From a virus (Duplodnaviria > Heunggongvirae > Uroviricota > Caudoviricetes): a stretch of 15,934 nt of DNA. Under the pieces are notes generated by a model that saw only the letters and a list, made by a program, of their open reading frames with translations, did no database searches and was not told the DNA's origin. Below, in pieces: positions 3,422 through 15,934 of the stretch. The position numbers and the translations under genes are program-made. How positions within the stretch are numbered: the first letter of the stretch is position 1; every line of letters starts with the position of its first letter. The stretch lies in IMG/VR virus record IMGVR_UViG_2529292919_000020, one strand, 5' to 3'.

Positions 3422-3709
3422 ATGAAAAATAAAAATTCTGGCTTTACTGCCAGCGGCCCCGCTCGGCCTGAAATCCGCCCCGGCGATATTTTCCGGGATA
3501 ACTATGGCGGCACGGTAACGATAAAAGGCGTGGCAGAACGGCGCATCACTTACCGCCGTGATGGCTACGAATATGACTGCGTGATGCCTGTTTATCAGTT
3601 CCGGCGTGATTTCACGCTGGTGGGCCATCGTAAAGCCGTAAATCAGAAACGTGCAGCAAGTCATATCCGCAAAATTCGTGAAATGCTGGTCGCAGGGGGT
3701 AAAAAATGA
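3422..3709 (+). CDS. Hypothetical basic protein (95 aa), translationally coupled to the replication initiator
   Basis: ORF-track ORF. Its stop overlaps the start of the downstream gene in an ATGA arrangement (3706..3709). Confidence 0.55.
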   Translation: MKNKNSGFTASGPARPEIRPGDIFRDNYGGTVTIKGVAERRITYRRDGYEYDCVMPVYQFRRDFTLVGHRKAVNQKRAASHIRKIREMLVAGGKK

Positions 3710-5520
3710 AACTGGCACCGAACGTAAAACAGCAGTTACGCGGCATAAAACACAAAGAAACAGAAGTCATTATTTTTGCGGGTAGTGATGCCTGGTCACA
3801 CGCAAAACAATGGCAGGAACATGACGCGCGTATGGCCGGAGATAATGAGCCTCCTGTGTGGCTTGGGGAGCAGCAGTTATCCGAACTGGATAAGCTGCAA
3901 ATTGTGCCGGAAGGCAGAAAATCCGTGCGCATATTCAGGGCCGGATATCTTGCGCCAGTAATGATAAAGGCGATTGGTCAGAAGCTGGCGGCGGCAGGCG
4001 TACAGGATGCAAATTTTTATCCTGAGGGTATGCACGGCCAGGAGGTGCAGAACTGGCGCGAATATCTGGCCCGTGAGCGCCAGAATCTTTCTGATGGTCT
4101 GGTGATTCAGCTTCCTGTTAAGAAAAAAACAGAAGACAGCGCCGCACCACTGGCGCTTAACCAGATGGGAGCAAGCCAGCGCGGCGAAGTTCTCCTGGCA
4201 CATTATGGCGGTGAACTGGCGATTCATGCCGACTCTGACACTGTTCACCATTACAACGGCGTTGTATGGGAGCCGATTCAGGATAAAGAGTTACAGCGTG
4301 CTATGGCGCAGATTTTCATTGATGCGGAGATCAGCTATTCGCAGAACGCCATTAAATCGGCGGTCGATACCATGAAGTTAAGTTTGCCTGTAATGGGGAA
4401 TACAGCCCGTAACCTGATTGGATTCAGTAACGGGGTATTTGATACCAGAACAGGTAATTTTCGGGAGCATAACAAAAACGACTGGTTGTTAATTGCCAGT
4501 GAATTACCTTTCAGCCCACCAGCAGAGGGGGAAACGCTGGCAACACATGCGCCGAATTTCTGGAAGTGGTTACGCCGCTCGGTGGCAGAGAATGACCGCA
4601 AGACGGATCGCGTGCTGGCTGCATTATTCATGGTGCTGGCGAACCGGTACGACTGGCAGTTATTCATTGAGGTAACAGGTCCAGGGGGAAGTGGTAAAAG
4701 CGTGATGGCGGAGATTTGCACCATGCTGGCGGGTAAGGCCAACACAGTATCGGCAAGCATGAAGGCGCTGGAAGATGCAAGGGAACGCGCGTTAGTGGTT
4801 GGCTTTTCGCTGATTATCATGCCGGATATGACCCGCTACGCTGGTGATGGCGCAGGAATTAAGGCCATTACAGGCGGTGACAAGGTGGCAATCGACCCGA
4901 AGCATAAAGCCCCCTACTCAACACGCATTCAGGCGGTCGTGCTGGCGGTGAACAATAACGCCATGTCATTCAGTGACCGCAGCGGGGGGATCTCACGTCG
5001 TCGGGTGATATTCAATTTTTCGGAGGTTGTACCGGAGAACGAGCGCGACCCCATGCTGGCAGAAAAAATAGAAGGAGAGCTGGCGGTTGTGATTCGCCAT
5101 CTGCTTACTCGTTTTTCTGACCAGGACGAAGCTAAACGCCTGCTGTATGAGCAGCAGAAATCAGAAGAAGCTCTGGTGATAAAACGCGAGGGCGATTCGC
5201 TGGTGGACTTCTGTGGCTATCTCATGTCGTCGGTAATGTGTGATGGTCTGTTAGTGGGTAATGCCGAAATTATTCCGTTCAGTCCGCGCAGGTATCTTTA
5301 TCACGCCTATCTGGCATATATGAGGGCACACGGATTCGGTAAACCTGTAACACTGACGCGCTTCGGTAAAGATATGCCGGGGGCAATGGCGGAATATGGC
5401 AGGGAGTATATAAAACGGAAAACGAAGCACGGTTTGCGTTCAAATGTGACACTGACAGAGGATTCAGAAGACTGGATGCCATCATGTGCATCGGTCACAA
5501 ATGACGACAGCAAAAATTAA
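3706..5520 (+). CDS. Replication initiator (pri-rep) with P4-alpha-like C-terminal SF3 helicase / origin-binding region; N-terminal ~200 aa of unassigned family
   Basis: 604-aa ORF with strong SD (CAGGGGG). Walker A GPGGSGKS, followed by a region resembling the phage/plasmid primase P4-family C-terminal (D5-like) helicase domain. Sits immediately upstream of an iteron array. Confidence 0.85.
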   Translation: MKLAPNVKQQLRGIKHKETEVIIFAGSDAWSHAKQWQEHDARMAGDNEPPVWLGEQQLSELDKLQIVPEGRKSVRIFRAGYLAPVMIKAIGQKLAAAGVQDANFYPEGMHGQEVQNWREYLARERQNLSDGLVIQLPVKKKTEDSAAPLALNQMGASQRGEVLLAHYGGELAIHADSDTVHHYNGVVWEPIQDKELQRAMAQIFIDAEISYSQNAIKSAVDTMKLSLPVMGNTARNLIGFSNGVFDTRTGNFREHNKNDWLLIASELPFSPPAEGETLATHAPNFWKWLRRSVAENDRKTDRVLAALFMVLANRYDWQLFIEVTGPGGSGKSVMAEICTMLAGKANTVSASMKALEDARERALVVGFSLIIMPDMTRYAGDGAGIKAITGGDKVAIDPKHKAPYSTRIQAVVLAVNNNAMSFSDRSGGISRRRVIFNFSEVVPENERDPMLAEKIEGELAVVIRHLLTRFSDQDEAKRLLYEQQKSEEALVIKREGDSLVDFCGYLMSSVMCDGLLVGNAEIIPFSPRRYLYHAYLAYMRAHGFGKPVTLTRFGKDMPGAMAEYGREYIKRKTKHGLRSNVTLTEDSEDWMPSCASVTNDDSKN

Positions 5521-5530
5521 ACTTATGGAA

Positions 5531-5760
5531 TAACTGTTCACCACTGTTCACCCTGTGATAAATATCTTTTATATCAGTACATTATAGGGTGAACAGTTAT
5601 TTGTGAACTGTTCACCAAACTATTCACTGTTCACCTTTTTGATTATTTATTGAGCTTTAAGGGTGAACAGTGGTGAACAGTTGGTGAATAGTTTTTGTGA
5701 AACTGTTCACCCCTTAACATTATGAATAAAAAGGGAAAATCTCAAAAGGTGAACAGGTGA
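5531..5760. repeat. Replication origin iterons: about ten copies of CTGTTCACC / GGTGAACAG in both orientations, with an adjacent AT-rich tract
   Basis: Forward copies start at 5534, 5545, 5608, 5627, 5703. Inverted copies start at 5588, 5662, 5672, 5748, plus a degenerate GGTGAATAG at 5683. Neighbouring copies are 10-11 bp apart. AT-rich AAAAATTTTATTTTATT at about 5774..5790. The core TGTTCACC is the octamer I recall as the alpha-binding iteron of P4 ori1/crr. Confidence 0.8.
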
Positions 5761-5853
5761 AGGGTTAAAATGCAAAAATTTTATTTTATTGCTGTGAGGT
5801 AAAGCCTGTGACAACGAAGCACGCAAAAAAAACCACAATCTCACGCCCTTGAT

Positions 5854-6054
5854 TTGACAGAACACTGGCTGAGGGTGGCGATAAAAATCATCGACCGCAA
5901 CGCGGGAGAAGGGTACGCAAAAGCACATCCCGAACTGATAAGCGCATTCATGACCACGGCGGCGGCAAACTTTGCCACGCTGACAGAACGGGAGATTGCC
6001 GAAGCGGAACAGGTGACAACCATCAACGTTAAAACCGGAGAGCAGACAGCATGA
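5854..6054 (+). CDS. Hypothetical small protein (start uncertain: TTG at 5854 or GTG at 5875)
   Basis: ORF-track ORF. Its stop overlaps the SSB start (ATGA at 6051..6054), suggesting coupling. No convincing RBS and no recognisable motif. Confidence 0.35.
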   Translation: MTEHWLRVAIKIIDRNAGEGYAKAHPELISAFMTTAAANFATLTEREIAEAEQVTTINVKTGEQTA

Positions 6055-6476
6055 CAGCACAGATAGCGGCTTACGGGCGGCTGGTGGCTGACCCGCAGTT
6101 AAAGACCACCAGCAAAGGGACACAAATGGCGATGGCGAGTATGGCGGTTCCCCTGCCGTGCAGCCAGGCAGATGACGGAACGGCGACGATGTGGTTATCT
6201 GTCCTGGCGTTTGGCAGACAGGCCGACGCACTGGCAAAACACCACAAAGGCGAACTGGTGAGCGTGGCGGGTAACATGCAGGTGGGCCAGTGGACAGGCC
6301 AGAACGGGGAAACGCAGCGGGGCTGGCAGGTTATTGCAGACAGCGTAATCAGTGCGCGAACGGCGCGACCGGGCGGCAAAAAAGGTCAACAGGGCCAGGC
6401 CACTGACGCACTGAACAGGGCAAAACAACAGACAAGCCAGCACGATGACCCGTACGGGGATAACATACCGTTTTAA
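6051..6476 (+). CDS. ssb: Single-stranded DNA-binding protein (SSB)
   Basis: 141 aa. The N-terminal OB-fold region aligns by eye with E. coli SSB (WLSVLAFGRQADALAKHHKGELVSVAGNMQVGQWTGQNGETQ versus [42 protein letters not shown]). Gln/Gly-rich linker and C-terminal tip ...DDPYGDNIPF resembling the SSB ...DDDIPF tail. GGAGAG SD upstream. Confidence 0.85.
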   Translation: MTAQIAAYGRLVADPQLKTTSKGTQMAMASMAVPLPCSQADDGTATMWLSVLAFGRQADALAKHHKGELVSVAGNMQVGQWTGQNGETQRGWQVIADSVISARTARPGGKKGQQGQATDALNRAKQQTSQHDDPYGDNIPF

Positions 6477-6512: not shown

Positions 6513-7043
6513 ATGACAACGCTGACCATTAACCGGAAGCCGAAAGGCATTTACGGCACGCCGCAGAAAACGACGCAGGCGGCGCAAGAGCAGGATAAAA
6601 CCACATCGGCGCATAAAGTGATACCCGGCAATCAGAACGCACAGCAGAAGCCCACAGGGGCGACACCGTGGCAGCATATGACCAAAAGGCAGCGCAAAAA
6701 CCGCCGACGCGTTAACCGCCTCACTGAGATGTGGCCTGACTTATTCAGCCATAAAGCACCGAAGCCGCTTAAGGTGGGGATATTCGACGACCTGATGCAG
6801 GATATCGCCGTCAGGGGGCTGGCATTCGGGCCGGGGGTATTACGTGCGACGCTGGCATCCTATGCGCAGTCTCCGCGCTATTACCGCGCCCTGATAGCTG
6901 GTGGCGCACGTTACGACCTGAAAGGCCAGCCATGTGGGGAAGTGACACCACAGGAACAGCAGGAGGCAGAAACACGGCTGATGGTGCTGAATGAGAAGCA
7001 CAAGCGCCAGCGCCGGGCAGCAAAGGGGGATACATGCCAGTGA
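6513..7043 (+). CDS. ProQ/FinO-domain RNA-binding protein
   Basis: 176 aa with strong SD (GGGGAAGG). ...WPDLFSHKAPKPLKVGIFDDLMQDIA...LRATLASYAQSPRYYRALIAGGARYDLKGQPCGEVTPQEQQEA matches the ProQ N-terminal / FinO fold signature (PLKIGIF-DL ... LR-AL--Y--S-RY ... R-DL-G-PCGE). Confidence 0.8.
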   Translation: MTTLTINRKPKGIYGTPQKTTQAAQEQDKTTSAHKVIPGNQNAQQKPTGATPWQHMTKRQRKNRRRVNRLTEMWPDLFSHKAPKPLKVGIFDDLMQDIAVRGLAFGPGVLRATLASYAQSPRYYRALIAGGARYDLKGQPCGEVTPQEQQEAETRLMVLNEKHKRQRRAAKGDTCQ

Positions 7044-8750: not shown

Positions 8751-9311
8751 ATGAAAAACACCGATTTTGAAATCCGTACATCTGAACTGACCGCCAGCGA
8801 TAAAAAACTGGTGGGTTATGCCGTTCGCTGGAACAGCCTTTCAGAAATTATCTGGGACGAGTTTCGCGAACAGTTCACGCCGGGGGCTTTTGCTGACTAT
8901 CTGGCGGCGGGTAATGATGTGCGCTGTCTGTATGAGCATGACTATACCCGACTGCTGGGGCGTACCAAATCCGGCTCACTGGTACTGACTGAGGATAACA
9001 CCGGGCTACGTTTTGAACTGACACCGCCAAATACCCAGCTTGGAAAAGATGTGCTTACGCTGGTGGAACGTGGCGATATTACAGGAATGAGCTTTGGCTT
9101 TCGCGCATTATGCGAGGAGTGGAATATCGCGCAAAAACCGTATCTGCGTACTGTAACCGCCGCAGAACTCCGTGAAATCACGATAACATCGATGCCTGCT
9201 TATCCCGAATCCGGCGTGGAGATTGCCCACCGTTCGTTGTTTGCACAGTACCCTGAATTACGCCCGGCAGGAAATAATCGTCATCGCTGGGCTGAACTGG
9301 CGGGGTTGTGA
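8751..9311 (+). CDS. Prohead maturation protease, HK97 family (S78/U35-like)
   Basis: 186 aa from ATG 8751 with GGAG SD. The track ORF 8526..9311 extends upstream into the capsid gene in another frame. Motifs typical of HK97 proteases: LVGYAVRWN...LYEHDYTRLLGRT...GLRFELTPPNT..GKDVL..VERGDITGMSFGF. Confidence 0.85.
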   Translation: MKNTDFEIRTSELTASDKKLVGYAVRWNSLSEIIWDEFREQFTPGAFADYLAAGNDVRCLYEHDYTRLLGRTKSGSLVLTEDNTGLRFELTPPNTQLGKDVLTLVERGDITGMSFGFRALCEEWNIAQKPYLRTVTAAELREITITSMPAYPESGVEIAHRSLFAQYPELRPAGNNRHRWAELAGL

Positions 9312-9312
9312 T

Positions 9313-10527
9313 ATGTGGTGGCCTTTTAGTCGTAAAAAAAGCGATCTGCGTAACCTGTCCATTGATGATTTTCTGGCGTTGTCTGGTGTACCAAATACCG
9401 GATCCGGAGAATATGTTTCTGCCGGGACGGCTGAATCATTGCCTGCTGTGATGAACGCGGTTTCTGTCATCGCTGAGGCGGTGGCCACGATGCCGTGTTA
9501 CCTGTATCTGGTACGCAATGATAAGGGCAGAGAGGCGCGGGAATGGCTGGACAGTCACCCGGTAGATATTCTGCTGAATGAGCAGCCTAATTCGTGCCTG
9601 ACACCTTACCAGTTTAAACGCACAATGATGCGTCACTGCCTGCTGAACGGTAACGCCTATGCGGTTATTGAGTGGGGGCGGGACGGGCAGCCAAAATCAC
9701 TTCATCCTTATGCGCCGGGGTGTGTTGTACCGGAACGCACAGGCACACACAAATACCGCTATACCATCACCGAACCCTGTACAGGAACGGTGCGCACGTA
9801 TTTACAGGAAGAAGTTCTGCATCTCCGCTATGCCTCGGATGATGGCTTTCTGGGGCGTTCCCCCGTCACGATTTGCCGTGAGGCGCTGGGGCTTGGCCTT
9901 GCTCAACAGCGTCACGGAGCCAGCATTATGAAAGATGGCATGATGGCGGCAGGGATTATCACGTCAGGTGAATGGCTGGACGGCGTGAAAGGTAAACAGG
10001 CATTAGACGCACTGGAACGCTACAAGGGGGCGAAAAATGCCGGAAAAACGCCAATCCTTGAAGGGGGCATGGATTACAGGCAGCTGGGGATGAGTAACCA
10101 GGATGCGGAATGGCTGGCCTCCCGTCGCTTCTCCATTGAAGACATCGCCAGGATGTTCAACGTGTCGCCGATTTTTCTTCAGGAATACAGCAACAGCACC
10201 TACAGCAATTTCAGTGAGGCGAGCCGCGCATTTCTGACCATGACAATGCGCCCGTGGCTGGCGAACTTCGAACAGCAAATCAAGGCCGCTTTGCTGGTGA
10301 CTTCTCCCGTACCAGGTACCCGTTATCTGGTTGAGTTTGATTCAGCCGATTTACTGCGCGCCACACCCACCGAACGTTATGCCACGTATGAGAAAGGGAT
10401 TAAGAGCGGGATCATGAATCCGAACGAAGCTCGCGAACGCGAGGGGATGCCGCCGCGTGAAGGTGGTGATGAGTTCAGCCAGGCATGGAAACAGACTGTG
10501 GAAATTAAAGGGAGAAAAGATGAGTGA
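9313..10527 (+). CDS. Portal protein, HK97 family
   Basis: 404 aa from ATG 9313, 2 nt after the protease stop. The track ORF starts at 9223 inside the protease gene. Size and order are consistent with a portal; overall similarity to HK97-type portals by eye. Confidence 0.8.
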   Translation: MWWPFSRKKSDLRNLSIDDFLALSGVPNTGSGEYVSAGTAESLPAVMNAVSVIAEAVATMPCYLYLVRNDKGREAREWLDSHPVDILLNEQPNSCLTPYQFKRTMMRHCLLNGNAYAVIEWGRDGQPKSLHPYAPGCVVPERTGTHKYRYTITEPCTGTVRTYLQEEVLHLRYASDDGFLGRSPVTICREALGLGLAQQRHGASIMKDGMMAAGIITSGEWLDGVKGKQALDALERYKGAKNAGKTPILEGGMDYRQLGMSNQDAEWLASRRFSIEDIARMFNVSPIFLQEYSNSTYSNFSEASRAFLTMTMRPWLANFEQQIKAALLVTSPVPGTRYLVEFDSADLLRATPTERYATYEKGIKSGIMNPNEAREREGMPPREGGDEFSQAWKQTVEIKGRKDE

Positions 10528-14473: not shown

Positions 14474-15934
14474 TTATTCATCTTTCGGCGCAGAATGCTG
14501 GCGACCAAAAATCACCTCCATCCGCGCACCGCCCAGCATGCTCTCTCCGGCGACGATTTTACCCTCATATTGCTCGGTGATTTCGCGGGCTACGGCCAGC
14601 CCCACACCTTGCCCAGGGCGTAAAGTATCAACCCGTTGACCACGGTCGAAAATGACCTCTCGCTTGCTTAATGGAATACCGGGGCCATCATCCTCGACCA
14701 CAATATAGAGATGCTCGTCGGTTTGCCTTGCAGAAATTTCGACAAACTCGAGGCAATATTTACAGGCGTTATCCAGCACGTTGCCCATCACTTCGACAAA
14801 ATCATTCTGCTCACCAACAAAGCTGATTTCTGGCGAGATATCGAGATAGATATTGACCCCTTTGCGTTGATACACTTTGTTCAGCGCCGAGGTGAGATTG
14901 TCCAACAGTGGGGCGACCGGATGCAGCTCGCGGCTAAGCAATGTCCCGCCGCGCATACTGGCACGATGCAGGTAGTAGCCAATTTGCTGTGAAATGCGGC
15001 TGATTTGCTCCAGCATTACCGGCTCAGCATCACTGACGCTCATCTTCTCACTACGCAGAGAACGCAGCGTACTTTGCAGCACCGCCAGTGGTGTTTTCAG
15101 ACTATGGGTCAGGTCGGTGAGCGTCGTACGATATTTGTCGTAACGTTCGCGTTCACTTTTTAACAGTCGGTTCAGGTTTCGTACCAGACTGGTCAGTTCT
15201 CGCGTTGTGGCTGGATTGAGCAATTCACGGTTATGTTCTTCCAGTTCGCGGACTTCTTTTGCCAGGGCTTCGATGGGGCGTAAACTCCACCAGGCGGCGA
15301 CCCACAGCAGCGGGATCACTAACAGCAGATTGGCTGAGAGCACATAGATAAACCAGCTCCAGACCATATAGGAACTTTTTAGCTCCACCGGAATGGTATC
15401 CACCACCACAATGGTTAACTTTGGCATCCGCGATGTTGCCGGGTAGACGTTTACCGCCACCGAGTGGGTCATCTCCGCGTCGTCATCATCTTCCCGCACT
15501 TCCTGCAACTGTTGCTGTATCGAATGATCTCCACTCAGCAAGAGGCTGGTATCGTTAACATCCGCTTCAATTTCATGAAAACCATTCGATTTCAGCCAGT
15601 CAGGCTGGATCATCTTCATCAGCCAGGGCACGTCACGTTGCGCCCATAAAAGCTGCCCGTTCTCATCATAAATTAGTGTCATCGTGGGGCTTTGCTTGTC
15701 GATATTTTCGGGTAACTCGACATGCAACTTATTGTTTTCCCACTTCGCAAGGGTATAGAACAGATTGCTCTCGCCACGTAACAGCCGAAACGTGGTTTTA
15801 TCGAAACTGACGCTATAACCGATCAGCGCAACCATTCCGTAGGCAAGCGAAAGCACCAATACTACTGCTGCCGTTGCTAACAGAAAACGTACCCGCAGCG
15901 AGAGCGGGAAAAAAAGATGCAGTAATTTTTTCAT
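14474..15934 (-). CDS. phoQ: Sensor histidine kinase PhoQ (PhoP/PhoQ two-component system)
   Basis: 486-aa ORF. From memory the sequence is near-identical to E. coli PhoQ ([76 protein letters not shown]... ending ...[10 protein letters not shown]). Periplasmic acidic patch EDDDDAE, HAMP, phosphoacceptor His in [12 protein letters not shown], and ATPase G-boxes. The start codon is at the window edge. Confidence 0.95.

Follow-up and report, generated by a model that had tools for sequence, protein, structure and literature searches.

Positions 5521-5800 of the viral record IMGVR_UViG_2529292919_000020, a stretch of 15,934 bp referred to here as the window, very probably serve a capsid-forming phage-inducible chromosomal island (cf-PICI) as its vegetative replication origin. 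The region lies directly downstream of an initiator gene, and it appears to be a PICI-type origin of P4 ancestry served by a chimeric initiator without a primase. This assignment is based on repeats and their excess over chance, on the geometry of the repeats, on protein and DNA homology to satellite phage P4, on conservation of the sites, on covariation of the sites with the initiator, and on the mosaic structure of the initiator itself, all of which are observed.

Repeats downstream of the initiator gene

The octamer TGTTCACC occurs 11 times in the window, where a mean of 0.57 copies is expected, and none of 200 dinucleotide-preserving shuffles reached 11. Nine of the 11 exact copies lie within 5535-5755 on both strands. 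All nine clustered copies share an extended form, the 9-mer CTGTTCACC. The sites of the cluster are as follows.

5534, 5544, 5608, 5627, 5703; + strand; CTGTTCACC
5588, 5662, 5672, 5748; - strand; CTGTTCACC
5683-5691; - strand; copy with one mismatch, CTATTCACC
5620-5628; + strand; copy found when two mismatches were allowed
5756-5764; - strand; copy found when two mismatches were allowed

The positions of both two-mismatch copies hold better iterons in related islands, for example GTATTCACC and GTGTTCACC. Because of this correspondence, both copies are counted as real, though decayed, sites, and the total becomes 12. An initial annotation of this DNA had described about ten iterons in both orientations directly after the initiator gene. 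Nine exact copies and one degenerate copy with a single mismatch were indeed found there in both orientations, the first of them 13 bp past the stop codon (5518-5520), but the number of sites is revised to twelve, arranged as two inverted six-site modules of the P4 ori1 type. The spacing of 10-11 bp which had been given for neighbouring copies applies to the tandem pairs (5534/5544 and 5662/5672/5683) but not to the others: 5748 and 5756 are 8 bp apart, and the remaining neighbours are separated by 19-45 bp. The adjoining AT-rich tract is evident. The GC content is 0.28-0.37 over 5480-5840, compared with about 0.5-0.6 on either side, and three of the 12 least stable 25-mers of the whole window fall in this stretch (5562-5586, 5765-5789, and 5636-5660).

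There is no plausible gene among the open reading frames (ORFs) of the repeat stretch. GATC is absent from the origin region, as are DnaA boxes with up to one mismatch, except for one weak TTATTCATA, and a scan of the same region for IHF sites gave nothing convincing. Rfam and tRNA scans of the window gave no matches. As single-stranded DNA, the segment 5525-5775 is predicted to fold with -48.3 kcal/mol (z -7.6 versus shuffled controls). This strong folding is due to the inverted iterons, so it is not independent evidence; conceivably, hairpins on the unwound strands might act as priming signals for a primase-less initiator.

Arrangement of the two six-site units

The twelve sites are organized as two P4 ori1-type modules placed head-to-head around position 5648 or so. 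The parts of the region are listed below.

5534..5635; + strand; left six-site unit, with sites 5534+, 5544+, 5588-, 5608+, 5620+ (degenerate), and 5627+
5553-5587; AT-rich 35-bp spacer of the left unit
5636..5661; no strand; central AT-rich spacer of 26 bp, with the symmetry centre at ~5648, containing the ninth least stable 25-mer of the window
5662..5764; - strand; right six-site unit, inverted relative to the left, with sites 5662-, 5672-, 5683- (one mismatch), 5703+, 5748-, and 5756- (degenerate)
5712-5747; AT-rich spacer of the right unit
5765..5800; no strand; AT-rich right flank, a candidate unwinding element, in which 5765-5789 is the third least stable 25-mer of the window

Read leftwards, the sites of the right unit are at offsets 0, 10, 21, 41, 86, and 94, and those of P4 ori1 are at 0, 10, 21, 42, 86, and 96. 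Read rightwards, the sites of the left unit are at 0, 10, 54 (inverted), 74, 86, and 93; the offsets of P4 ori1 in the alpha-sense direction are 0, 10, 54 (inverted), 75, 86, and 96. Both units therefore match the site geometry of P4 ori1 to within 1-3 bp, and the left and right arms are mirror images of each other to within the same 1-3 bp. Joint alignment of both units (the right one reverse-complemented) with P4 ori1 and with the origin region of a P4-like satellite found in E. coli L1_E925 gave a common plan: two tandem sites, an AT-rich spacer of ~35 bp, one inverted site, 11-13 bp, and three tandem sites. The pairwise identities within this alignment are 59-71%. An A/T-rich tract is present in aligned P4 ori1 at the position matching the right flank.

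We take TGTTCACC to be the binding sequence of the P4 alpha protein, from the annotation of the P4 genome. In the P4 record NC_001609 it is labelled 'ori type 1 repeat' both in ori (9310-9413) and in crr (4291-4590), so that the octamer was correctly assigned to P4 ori1 and crr in the initial annotation. The relationship extends to the DNA between the sites. When the intergenic region was compared by blastn with 50,697 phage records, 5661-5718 matched P4 9309-9367 with 81% identity (E 4e-5), a segment annotated as 'origin of DNA replication'. A separate blastn match, with 77% identity, links the left unit to the ori of the P4-like satellite from L1_E925.

The left unit was at first read as crr-like, with the right unit as ori1-like. 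This reading was given up once the satellite ori had matched the left unit, and the joint alignment shows the ori1 geometry in both units, in opposite orientations. The left unit aligns with the P4 crr repeat over the first two-thirds, but the orientation pattern of crr, three inverted sites followed by one direct site, differs from it in the second half.

Isolated iteron copies are also present within the coding sequence of the initiator, at 4241-4249 (+), 4947-4954 (-), and 4210-4218 (-, one mismatch). The copy at 4242, in the codons for T-V-H-H, is found at the same place in the related loci L001, L003, and L008 and is missing from L004-L006. It could be a chance occurrence, an autoregulatory site, or a relic comparable to the intragenic ori2 of P4.

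A different role for the whole cluster is conceivable, namely that of a crr-like cis enhancer only, with synthesis starting at an iteron-poor origin elsewhere, as at P4 ori2 inside the alpha gene. In P4, it is crr and not ori1 that directly follows alpha; a distance of 4.7 kb separates ori1 from crr, which is required in cis. The partial alignment of the left unit with the crr repeat and the two isolated TGTTCACC copies in the initiator gene (4242 and 4947), the former recurring in three relatives, point in the same direction. Nevertheless, this role is quite unlikely, since the ori1 geometry fits both units better than the crr geometry and the blastn match is to P4 ori, not to crr. No second iteron cluster was found elsewhere in the 15.9-kb window, and the copies in the gene are single, lie in coding sequence, and are not shared by all relatives. 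In addition, the replicon of the E. coli island EcCICFT073 replicates less without the equivalent region (PMC6092414).

Initiator protein

The initiator gene and its two terminal domains are located as follows.

3706..5520; + strand; initiator gene, 604 aa, a chimeric P4 alpha homologue predicted to be primase-less
3706..4110; + strand; N-terminal module (aa 1-135), a Toprim-like fold without the catalytic acidic residues, in place of the zinc-ribbon and Toprim primase of P4
5191..5481; + strand; C-terminal winged-helix origin-binding domain (aa 496-592), matching 1ka8_A in a phmmer search against the PDB (E 3.4e-24), with the wing hairpin KRKTKHG-LRSN

Residues 137-600 of the initiator are 49% identical to residues 313-776 of P4 alpha over 464 aa (E 3e-162). 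Pfam matches are D5_N (aa 161-290), the DUF5906/SF3 NTPase (324-432), and the Pox_D5 C-terminal domain (495-590, E 3.7e-13), and the Walker A motif GPGGSGKS is intact. The comparison of the C-terminus with the origin-binding domain of P4 alpha had been set beforehand as a test that could refute the proposal. Residues 496-592 match 1KA8 with an E value of 3e-24; the nature of this P4 origin-binding winged-helix domain has been described (PMC2777425).

The N-terminal part is different. P4 alpha contains Zn_Ribbon_Prim at aa 30-66 and Toprim_3 at aa 210-299. Neither Pfam nor NCBIfam gave a match to a zinc-ribbon or Toprim primase in the initiator, even at permissive thresholds; BLAST detected no similarity to P4 alpha before aa 137, and hhalign of the N-domain profile with P4 alpha 190-320 gave no match. 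TIGR01613 ('primase, P4 family') scored 98 bits on the initiator, under its cut-off of 108.7. The initial annotation had stated that the N-terminal half does not look like the P4 primase domain. The primase region (alpha aa 30-300) is indeed absent, but the part that is not of P4 type is limited to ~135 aa, the first quarter of the chain.

This N-domain is a conserved module with invariant E20, IIFAG, AW, R75, and G80. At the positions of the Toprim glutamate and the DxD motif it reads A25-G26 and A79-G80-Y81, respectively. It is modelled as a small Toprim-like fold, and its link to Toprim rests on weak fold matches and one PHROG match. The domain may be a degenerate, non-catalytic Toprim remnant or a look-alike. 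As it has neither the zinc ribbon nor the catalytic Toprim residues, the initiator probably cannot prime. The P4-like mechanism proposed in the initial annotation thus seems to hold for origin recognition and unwinding, and probably not for priming.

Comparison with the initiator of EcCICFT073 gives 96% protein identity and 98% DNA identity for the N-domain, but only 42% identity beyond it; the break falls at residues ~135-145. The same N-domain is joined to RepA-like (AAA_25) and DUF927-type helicases in other E. coli proteins. Conversely, the body consisting of D5_N, SF3 helicase, and winged helix carries three kinds of N-module in other genomes: the P4-type primase (47 loci, ~813 aa), the type found in the window (11 loci), and a helical module (~18 loci). 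Domain shuffling at this junction, which had been suspected from the start, is therefore demonstrated in three ways.

It should be mentioned that the third N-module is apparently all-helical. It occupies the first ~120 codons, contains the motif ALFSCVYxWVNGH, and occurs in L015, L018, L020, L022, L028, L030-L034, and L053, where it is joined to this helicase body at the same point, LNQMGxSQRGEVL. Neither the profile of the window-type N-domain nor phmmer with the P4 primase region detected it.

Conservation of the sites and covariation with the wing

Six diverged E. coli islands were used for the conservation of alignment columns. Invariant columns make up 70% of the iterons and 43% of the spacers (Fisher p 3e-5). 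One of the six relatives carries one extra 10-bp iteron, a typical way in which iteron arrays evolve. The AT-rich tracts of low stability are conserved together with the iterons in the relatives.

For a wider comparison, one genome per bacterial species was scanned with the C-terminal 300 residues of the initiator, which gave 368 relatives. The 450 bp downstream of each gene were compared for the best 80 of these, and 78 loci were used for the comparison of the wing. Genera represented among the best 80 loci include Klebsiella, Citrobacter, Raoultella, Pectobacterium, Serratia, Yersinia, Xenorhabdus, and Photorhabdus. Nearly all of them, from Enterobacterales, show the inverted two-unit pattern with about 12 sites after the stop codon. 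The iteron sequences among them fall into four classes, CTGTTCACC, CTGTCTACC, AGTCTCCACC, and CTGTCCGCC. Among the 78 loci, the winged-helix domain is nearly invariant except for the hairpin that follows the recognition helix, and one form of this hairpin is found per iteron class:

iteron class CTGTTCACC; wing hairpin KRKTKHG-----IRSN
iteron class CTGTCTACC; wing hairpin KRKQCTRGPDKGRTISN
iteron class AGTCTCCACC; wing hairpin IRKKSTKG-NMRSN
iteron class CTGTCCGCC; wing hairpin KKAESKKKATRGRIQSN

Because the wing hairpin covaries with the iteron class, there is strong indirect evidence that the repeats after the gene are read by the winged-helix domain and that part of the specificity resides in the wing.

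The genomes of the Xenorhabdus and Photorhabdus loci (L033, L038-L088) contain many full-length P4-type alpha genes of ~813 aa, up to five of them in Xenorhabdus ehlersii. Each of these genes is followed by inverted two-unit iterons, and not by the two direct crr repeats of P4.

The same observations bear on a possible role of the repeats in packaging, as a cos or pac site or as TerS-binding repeats for the terminase of the island. In cf-PICIs, the island DNA is packaged by TerS, TerL, and HNH proteins that the island itself encodes (bioRxiv 10.1101/2022.09.08.507074), and terminase recognition sites are often repeated. However, the same region is present in classical PICIs that do not carry these terminase genes (L003, L005, and L006), the repeat sequence follows the wing of the initiator rather than the packaging module, and the repeat is identical to the P4 alpha-binding site. 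A packaging function is hence extremely improbable.

Several points weigh against the assignment of 5521-5800 as an origin. Binding of the initiator and firing of the region are deduced from homology. The covariation between iteron and wing amounts to only about three independent class switches. In EcCICFT073, whose scaffold is more distant, CTGTCTACC is read with a wing that differs from the one in the closer CTGTCTACC group; the wing is therefore not the only possible determinant of specificity. Finally, a scan in and around the region detected neither a + strand promoter nor a terminator, so that the region is probably transcribed through, and the bound initiator could also be a regulator.

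This last point may be carried further: the initiator, bound ahead of the SSB, ProQ, and capsid genes, might control read-through or, by handcuffing, copy number, and the role as an origin would then be secondary or absent. The iterons of many plasmids serve in both replication and control. Besides the probable location inside a rightward transcript, the unidirectional transcription reported for Gram-negative PICIs (PMC6092414) agrees with such an operator or roadblock. On the other hand, the region is laid out like a proven origin, P4 ori1, to which it is homologous; the low-stability tracts are conserved beside the sites; and a protein that combines an SF3 helicase and an origin-binding domain requires an origin, for which this is the only cluster. 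It is very unlikely that control replaces the origin function, although it is compatible with that function as an added role.

Proposed mechanism of replication

Taking 5521-5800 as the origin, the following course of events may be proposed. After induction and excision of the island, the 604-aa initiator would use the winged helix at its C-terminus to bind the twelve (C)TGTTCACC iterons. Each six-site module would position one SF3 helicase hexamer, so that two hexamers would be loaded head-to-head. These might melt the AT-rich tracts 5553-5587, 5636-5661, 5712-5747, and 5765-5800, in one or more of which unwinding would start, and their separation would lead to bidirectional theta replication without DnaA. 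P4 requires a distant crr in cis; in the window, the role of crr probably falls to the second, inverted module beside the first. Primers might be supplied by DnaG of the host or by a helper phage, and the opened DNA would be coated by the single-strand DNA-binding protein (SSB) of the island itself.

Comparison with known replicons

The origin shares with P4 replicon I the iteron (C)TGTTCACC, the six-site ori1 geometry (0, 10, 21, 41-42, 86, 94-96), and in part the spacer sequence (81% over 58 bp); D5_N, the SF3 helicase, and the winged-helix origin-binding domain are common to P4 alpha and the initiator of the window. Replication of the P4 replicon depends on its initiator and is independent of DnaA, DnaB, and DnaG. 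The differences concern several parts. P4 alpha has a zinc-ribbon/Toprim primase where the initiator of the window has a Toprim-like module of ~135 aa. In P4, crr consists of two direct 120-bp repeats at a distance of 4.7 kb from ori, whereas the window has a single cluster, with two inverted adjacent ori1-type units right after the gene. Type 2 repeats are present in P4 and not in the window, and the window has no terminator between the gene and the repeats. Upstream of alpha, P4 has Cnr (ORF106, DUF5375); the window has DUF4222 there. Unlike P4-like satellites, the element in the window does not carry sid, psu, delta, or epsilon.

An experimentally studied counterpart is found among the PICIs. 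The origin of Gram-negative PICIs directly follows pri-rep and has two iteron sets flanking an AT-rich region (PMC6092414). For EcCICFT073, maintenance of a pri-rep-ori plasmid depends on both rep and ori (Fillol-Salom et al. 2018, PMC6092414), and deletion of the equivalent origin region reduces replication (PMC6092414). We located this island in CFT073; its origin has the same architecture and position, with CTGTCTACC iterons. Both islands have the origin directly after pri-rep, with two sets of iterons around DNA rich in AT; they also share the gene order DUF4222, pri-rep, ori, small ORF, SSB, the attachment site beside phoQ, an integrase with 95% identity, and the N-terminal 135 aa of the initiator with 96% identity. 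They differ in the helicase and winged-helix body (42% identity) and in the iteron (CTGTCTACC in place of CTGTTCACC), and EcCICFT073, a classical PICI of the cos type, has no portal or terminase of its own. The Pri-Rep proteins of PICIs have been stated to differ in sequence from P4 alpha (PMC6092414). To judge from the alignment with alpha, the variant in the window is an exception.

Some resemblance to more distant systems is also seen. In SV40 large T antigen and papillomavirus E1, inverted sites around AT-rich DNA load a double hexamer head-to-head. The combination of an SF3 helicase and an attached origin-binding domain with inverted sites flanking AT-rich DNA is shared with the window, but only the mechanism is alike: the sites differ, and the origin-binding domains belong to unrelated fold classes. 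Iteron plasmids (pSC101, R6K, RK2, P1, and F, with initiators of the RepA/pi/TrfA type) have direct repeats at helical-turn spacing, an AT-rich unwinding element adjoining the sites, and a winged-helix initiator. In contrast to the window, their initiators are not helicases and need DnaA boxes and loading of DnaB/DnaC; the window is without a DnaA box, its initiator contains an SF3 helicase of its own, and its sites are in both orientations.

PICI origins, and P4 alpha with its iterons, are already known. In the literature searched, we did not find a PICI Pri-Rep variant described as a close alpha homologue using the P4 iteron, nor a PICI origin described as an inverted duplication of the ori1 module and as the common form across Enterobacterales. 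Loss of the primase in this initiator and a change of the wing with the iteron class were likewise not found there.

P4-like elements and PICIs or cf-PICIs, which have been treated as separate, are tied by these results to one replication module composed of the iteron, the six-site geometry, the helicase, and the origin-binding domain. P4, with its split ori/crr layout, proves to be the exception, and a compact origin of two inverted units after the gene is usual across Enterobacterales. A natural primase-less alpha raises the question of how an SF3 helicase initiator gets primers in bacteria. A short hairpin may set the specificity for the iteron; if so, it would be useful for orthogonal replicons and for predicting cross-talk or incompatibility between satellites. 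Of 5426 complete E. coli genomes, 675 (about 12%) contain the origin region, which occurs both in capsid-forming islands and in classical PICIs with PerC regulators and is thus relevant to the amplification of islands before transfer.

The replicon of the window shares the exact P4 iteron but its initiator appears to be primase-less, and for this reason a further and rather doubtful possibility may be put forward: that P4 and PICI replicons are not independent in replication when they share a cell. P4 alpha might fire the PICI origin, or the primase-less homologue might occupy P4 ori and crr in a dominant-negative manner. The N-modules (P4 primase, Toprim-like, and helical) would then be alternative primer sources or sensors of the helper, and the wing hairpin a switch creating orthogonal replicons, for which four iteron sequences have been seen. 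If this were true, there would be iteron-based incompatibility between satellite families, and such incompatibility could contribute to the reported deficit in co-occurrence: P4-like elements and (cf)PICIs are under-represented together in E. coli (PMC10085698).

Gene content of the island

The window is an almost complete cf-PICI of E. coli. The genes are arranged in the order integrase, small regulators, DUF4222, initiator, ori, SSB, ProQ/FinO, HK97-type capsid, prohead protease, portal, connector, HNH, TerS, TerL, and chromosomal phoQ. By Pfam matches, the island has an integrase, regulators, pri-rep, and packaging genes of its own, and no tail or lysis genes, in line with the description of cf-PICIs (PMC10085698). 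E. coli ATCC 43886 has an annotated island that is nearly identical. The genes outside the initiator and the capsid region that are discussed here are the following.

1-1230; + strand; tyrosine integrase
3422..3709; + strand; DUF4222 gene (Pfam E 1e-25), whose stop codon overlaps the start of the initiator gene (ATGA)
6051..6476; + strand; SSB gene (Pfam SSB E 1.6e-15)

The ATGA overlap suggests translational coupling of DUF4222 and the initiator. The pairing of the two genes is also found in L001, L008, and EcCICFT073. DUF4222 was considered as an analogue of Cnr and rejected: it occupies the same position as cnr in P4, but it shows no similarity to P4 Cnr (ORF106/DUF5375).

The SSB gene is at the same position in the O157:H7 PICI, EcCICFT073, and others, and its product probably belongs to the replication module. 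Among relatives, both cf-PICIs and classical PICIs, SSB is followed by the gene of a ProQ/FinO-family RNA chaperone (6513-7043, + strand, in the window), whose role in a satellite is not obvious. The small ORF past the origin (5808-6054, + strand) belongs to phrog_1231. It is annotated with 81 aa and a GTG start in ATCC 43886; a difference of one nucleotide from that strain leaves a 66-aa ORF from TTG 5854 in the window.

The integrase (1-1230, + strand) and its counterpart in EcCICFT073 share 95% identity, and phoQ (14474-15934, - strand) adjoins the island just as it adjoins EcCICFT073 in CFT073. The island of ATCC 43886 has an identical origin region, but its integrase is only 47% identical and its site is between gcd and hpt. 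Integration, replication, and packaging modules therefore reassort independently.

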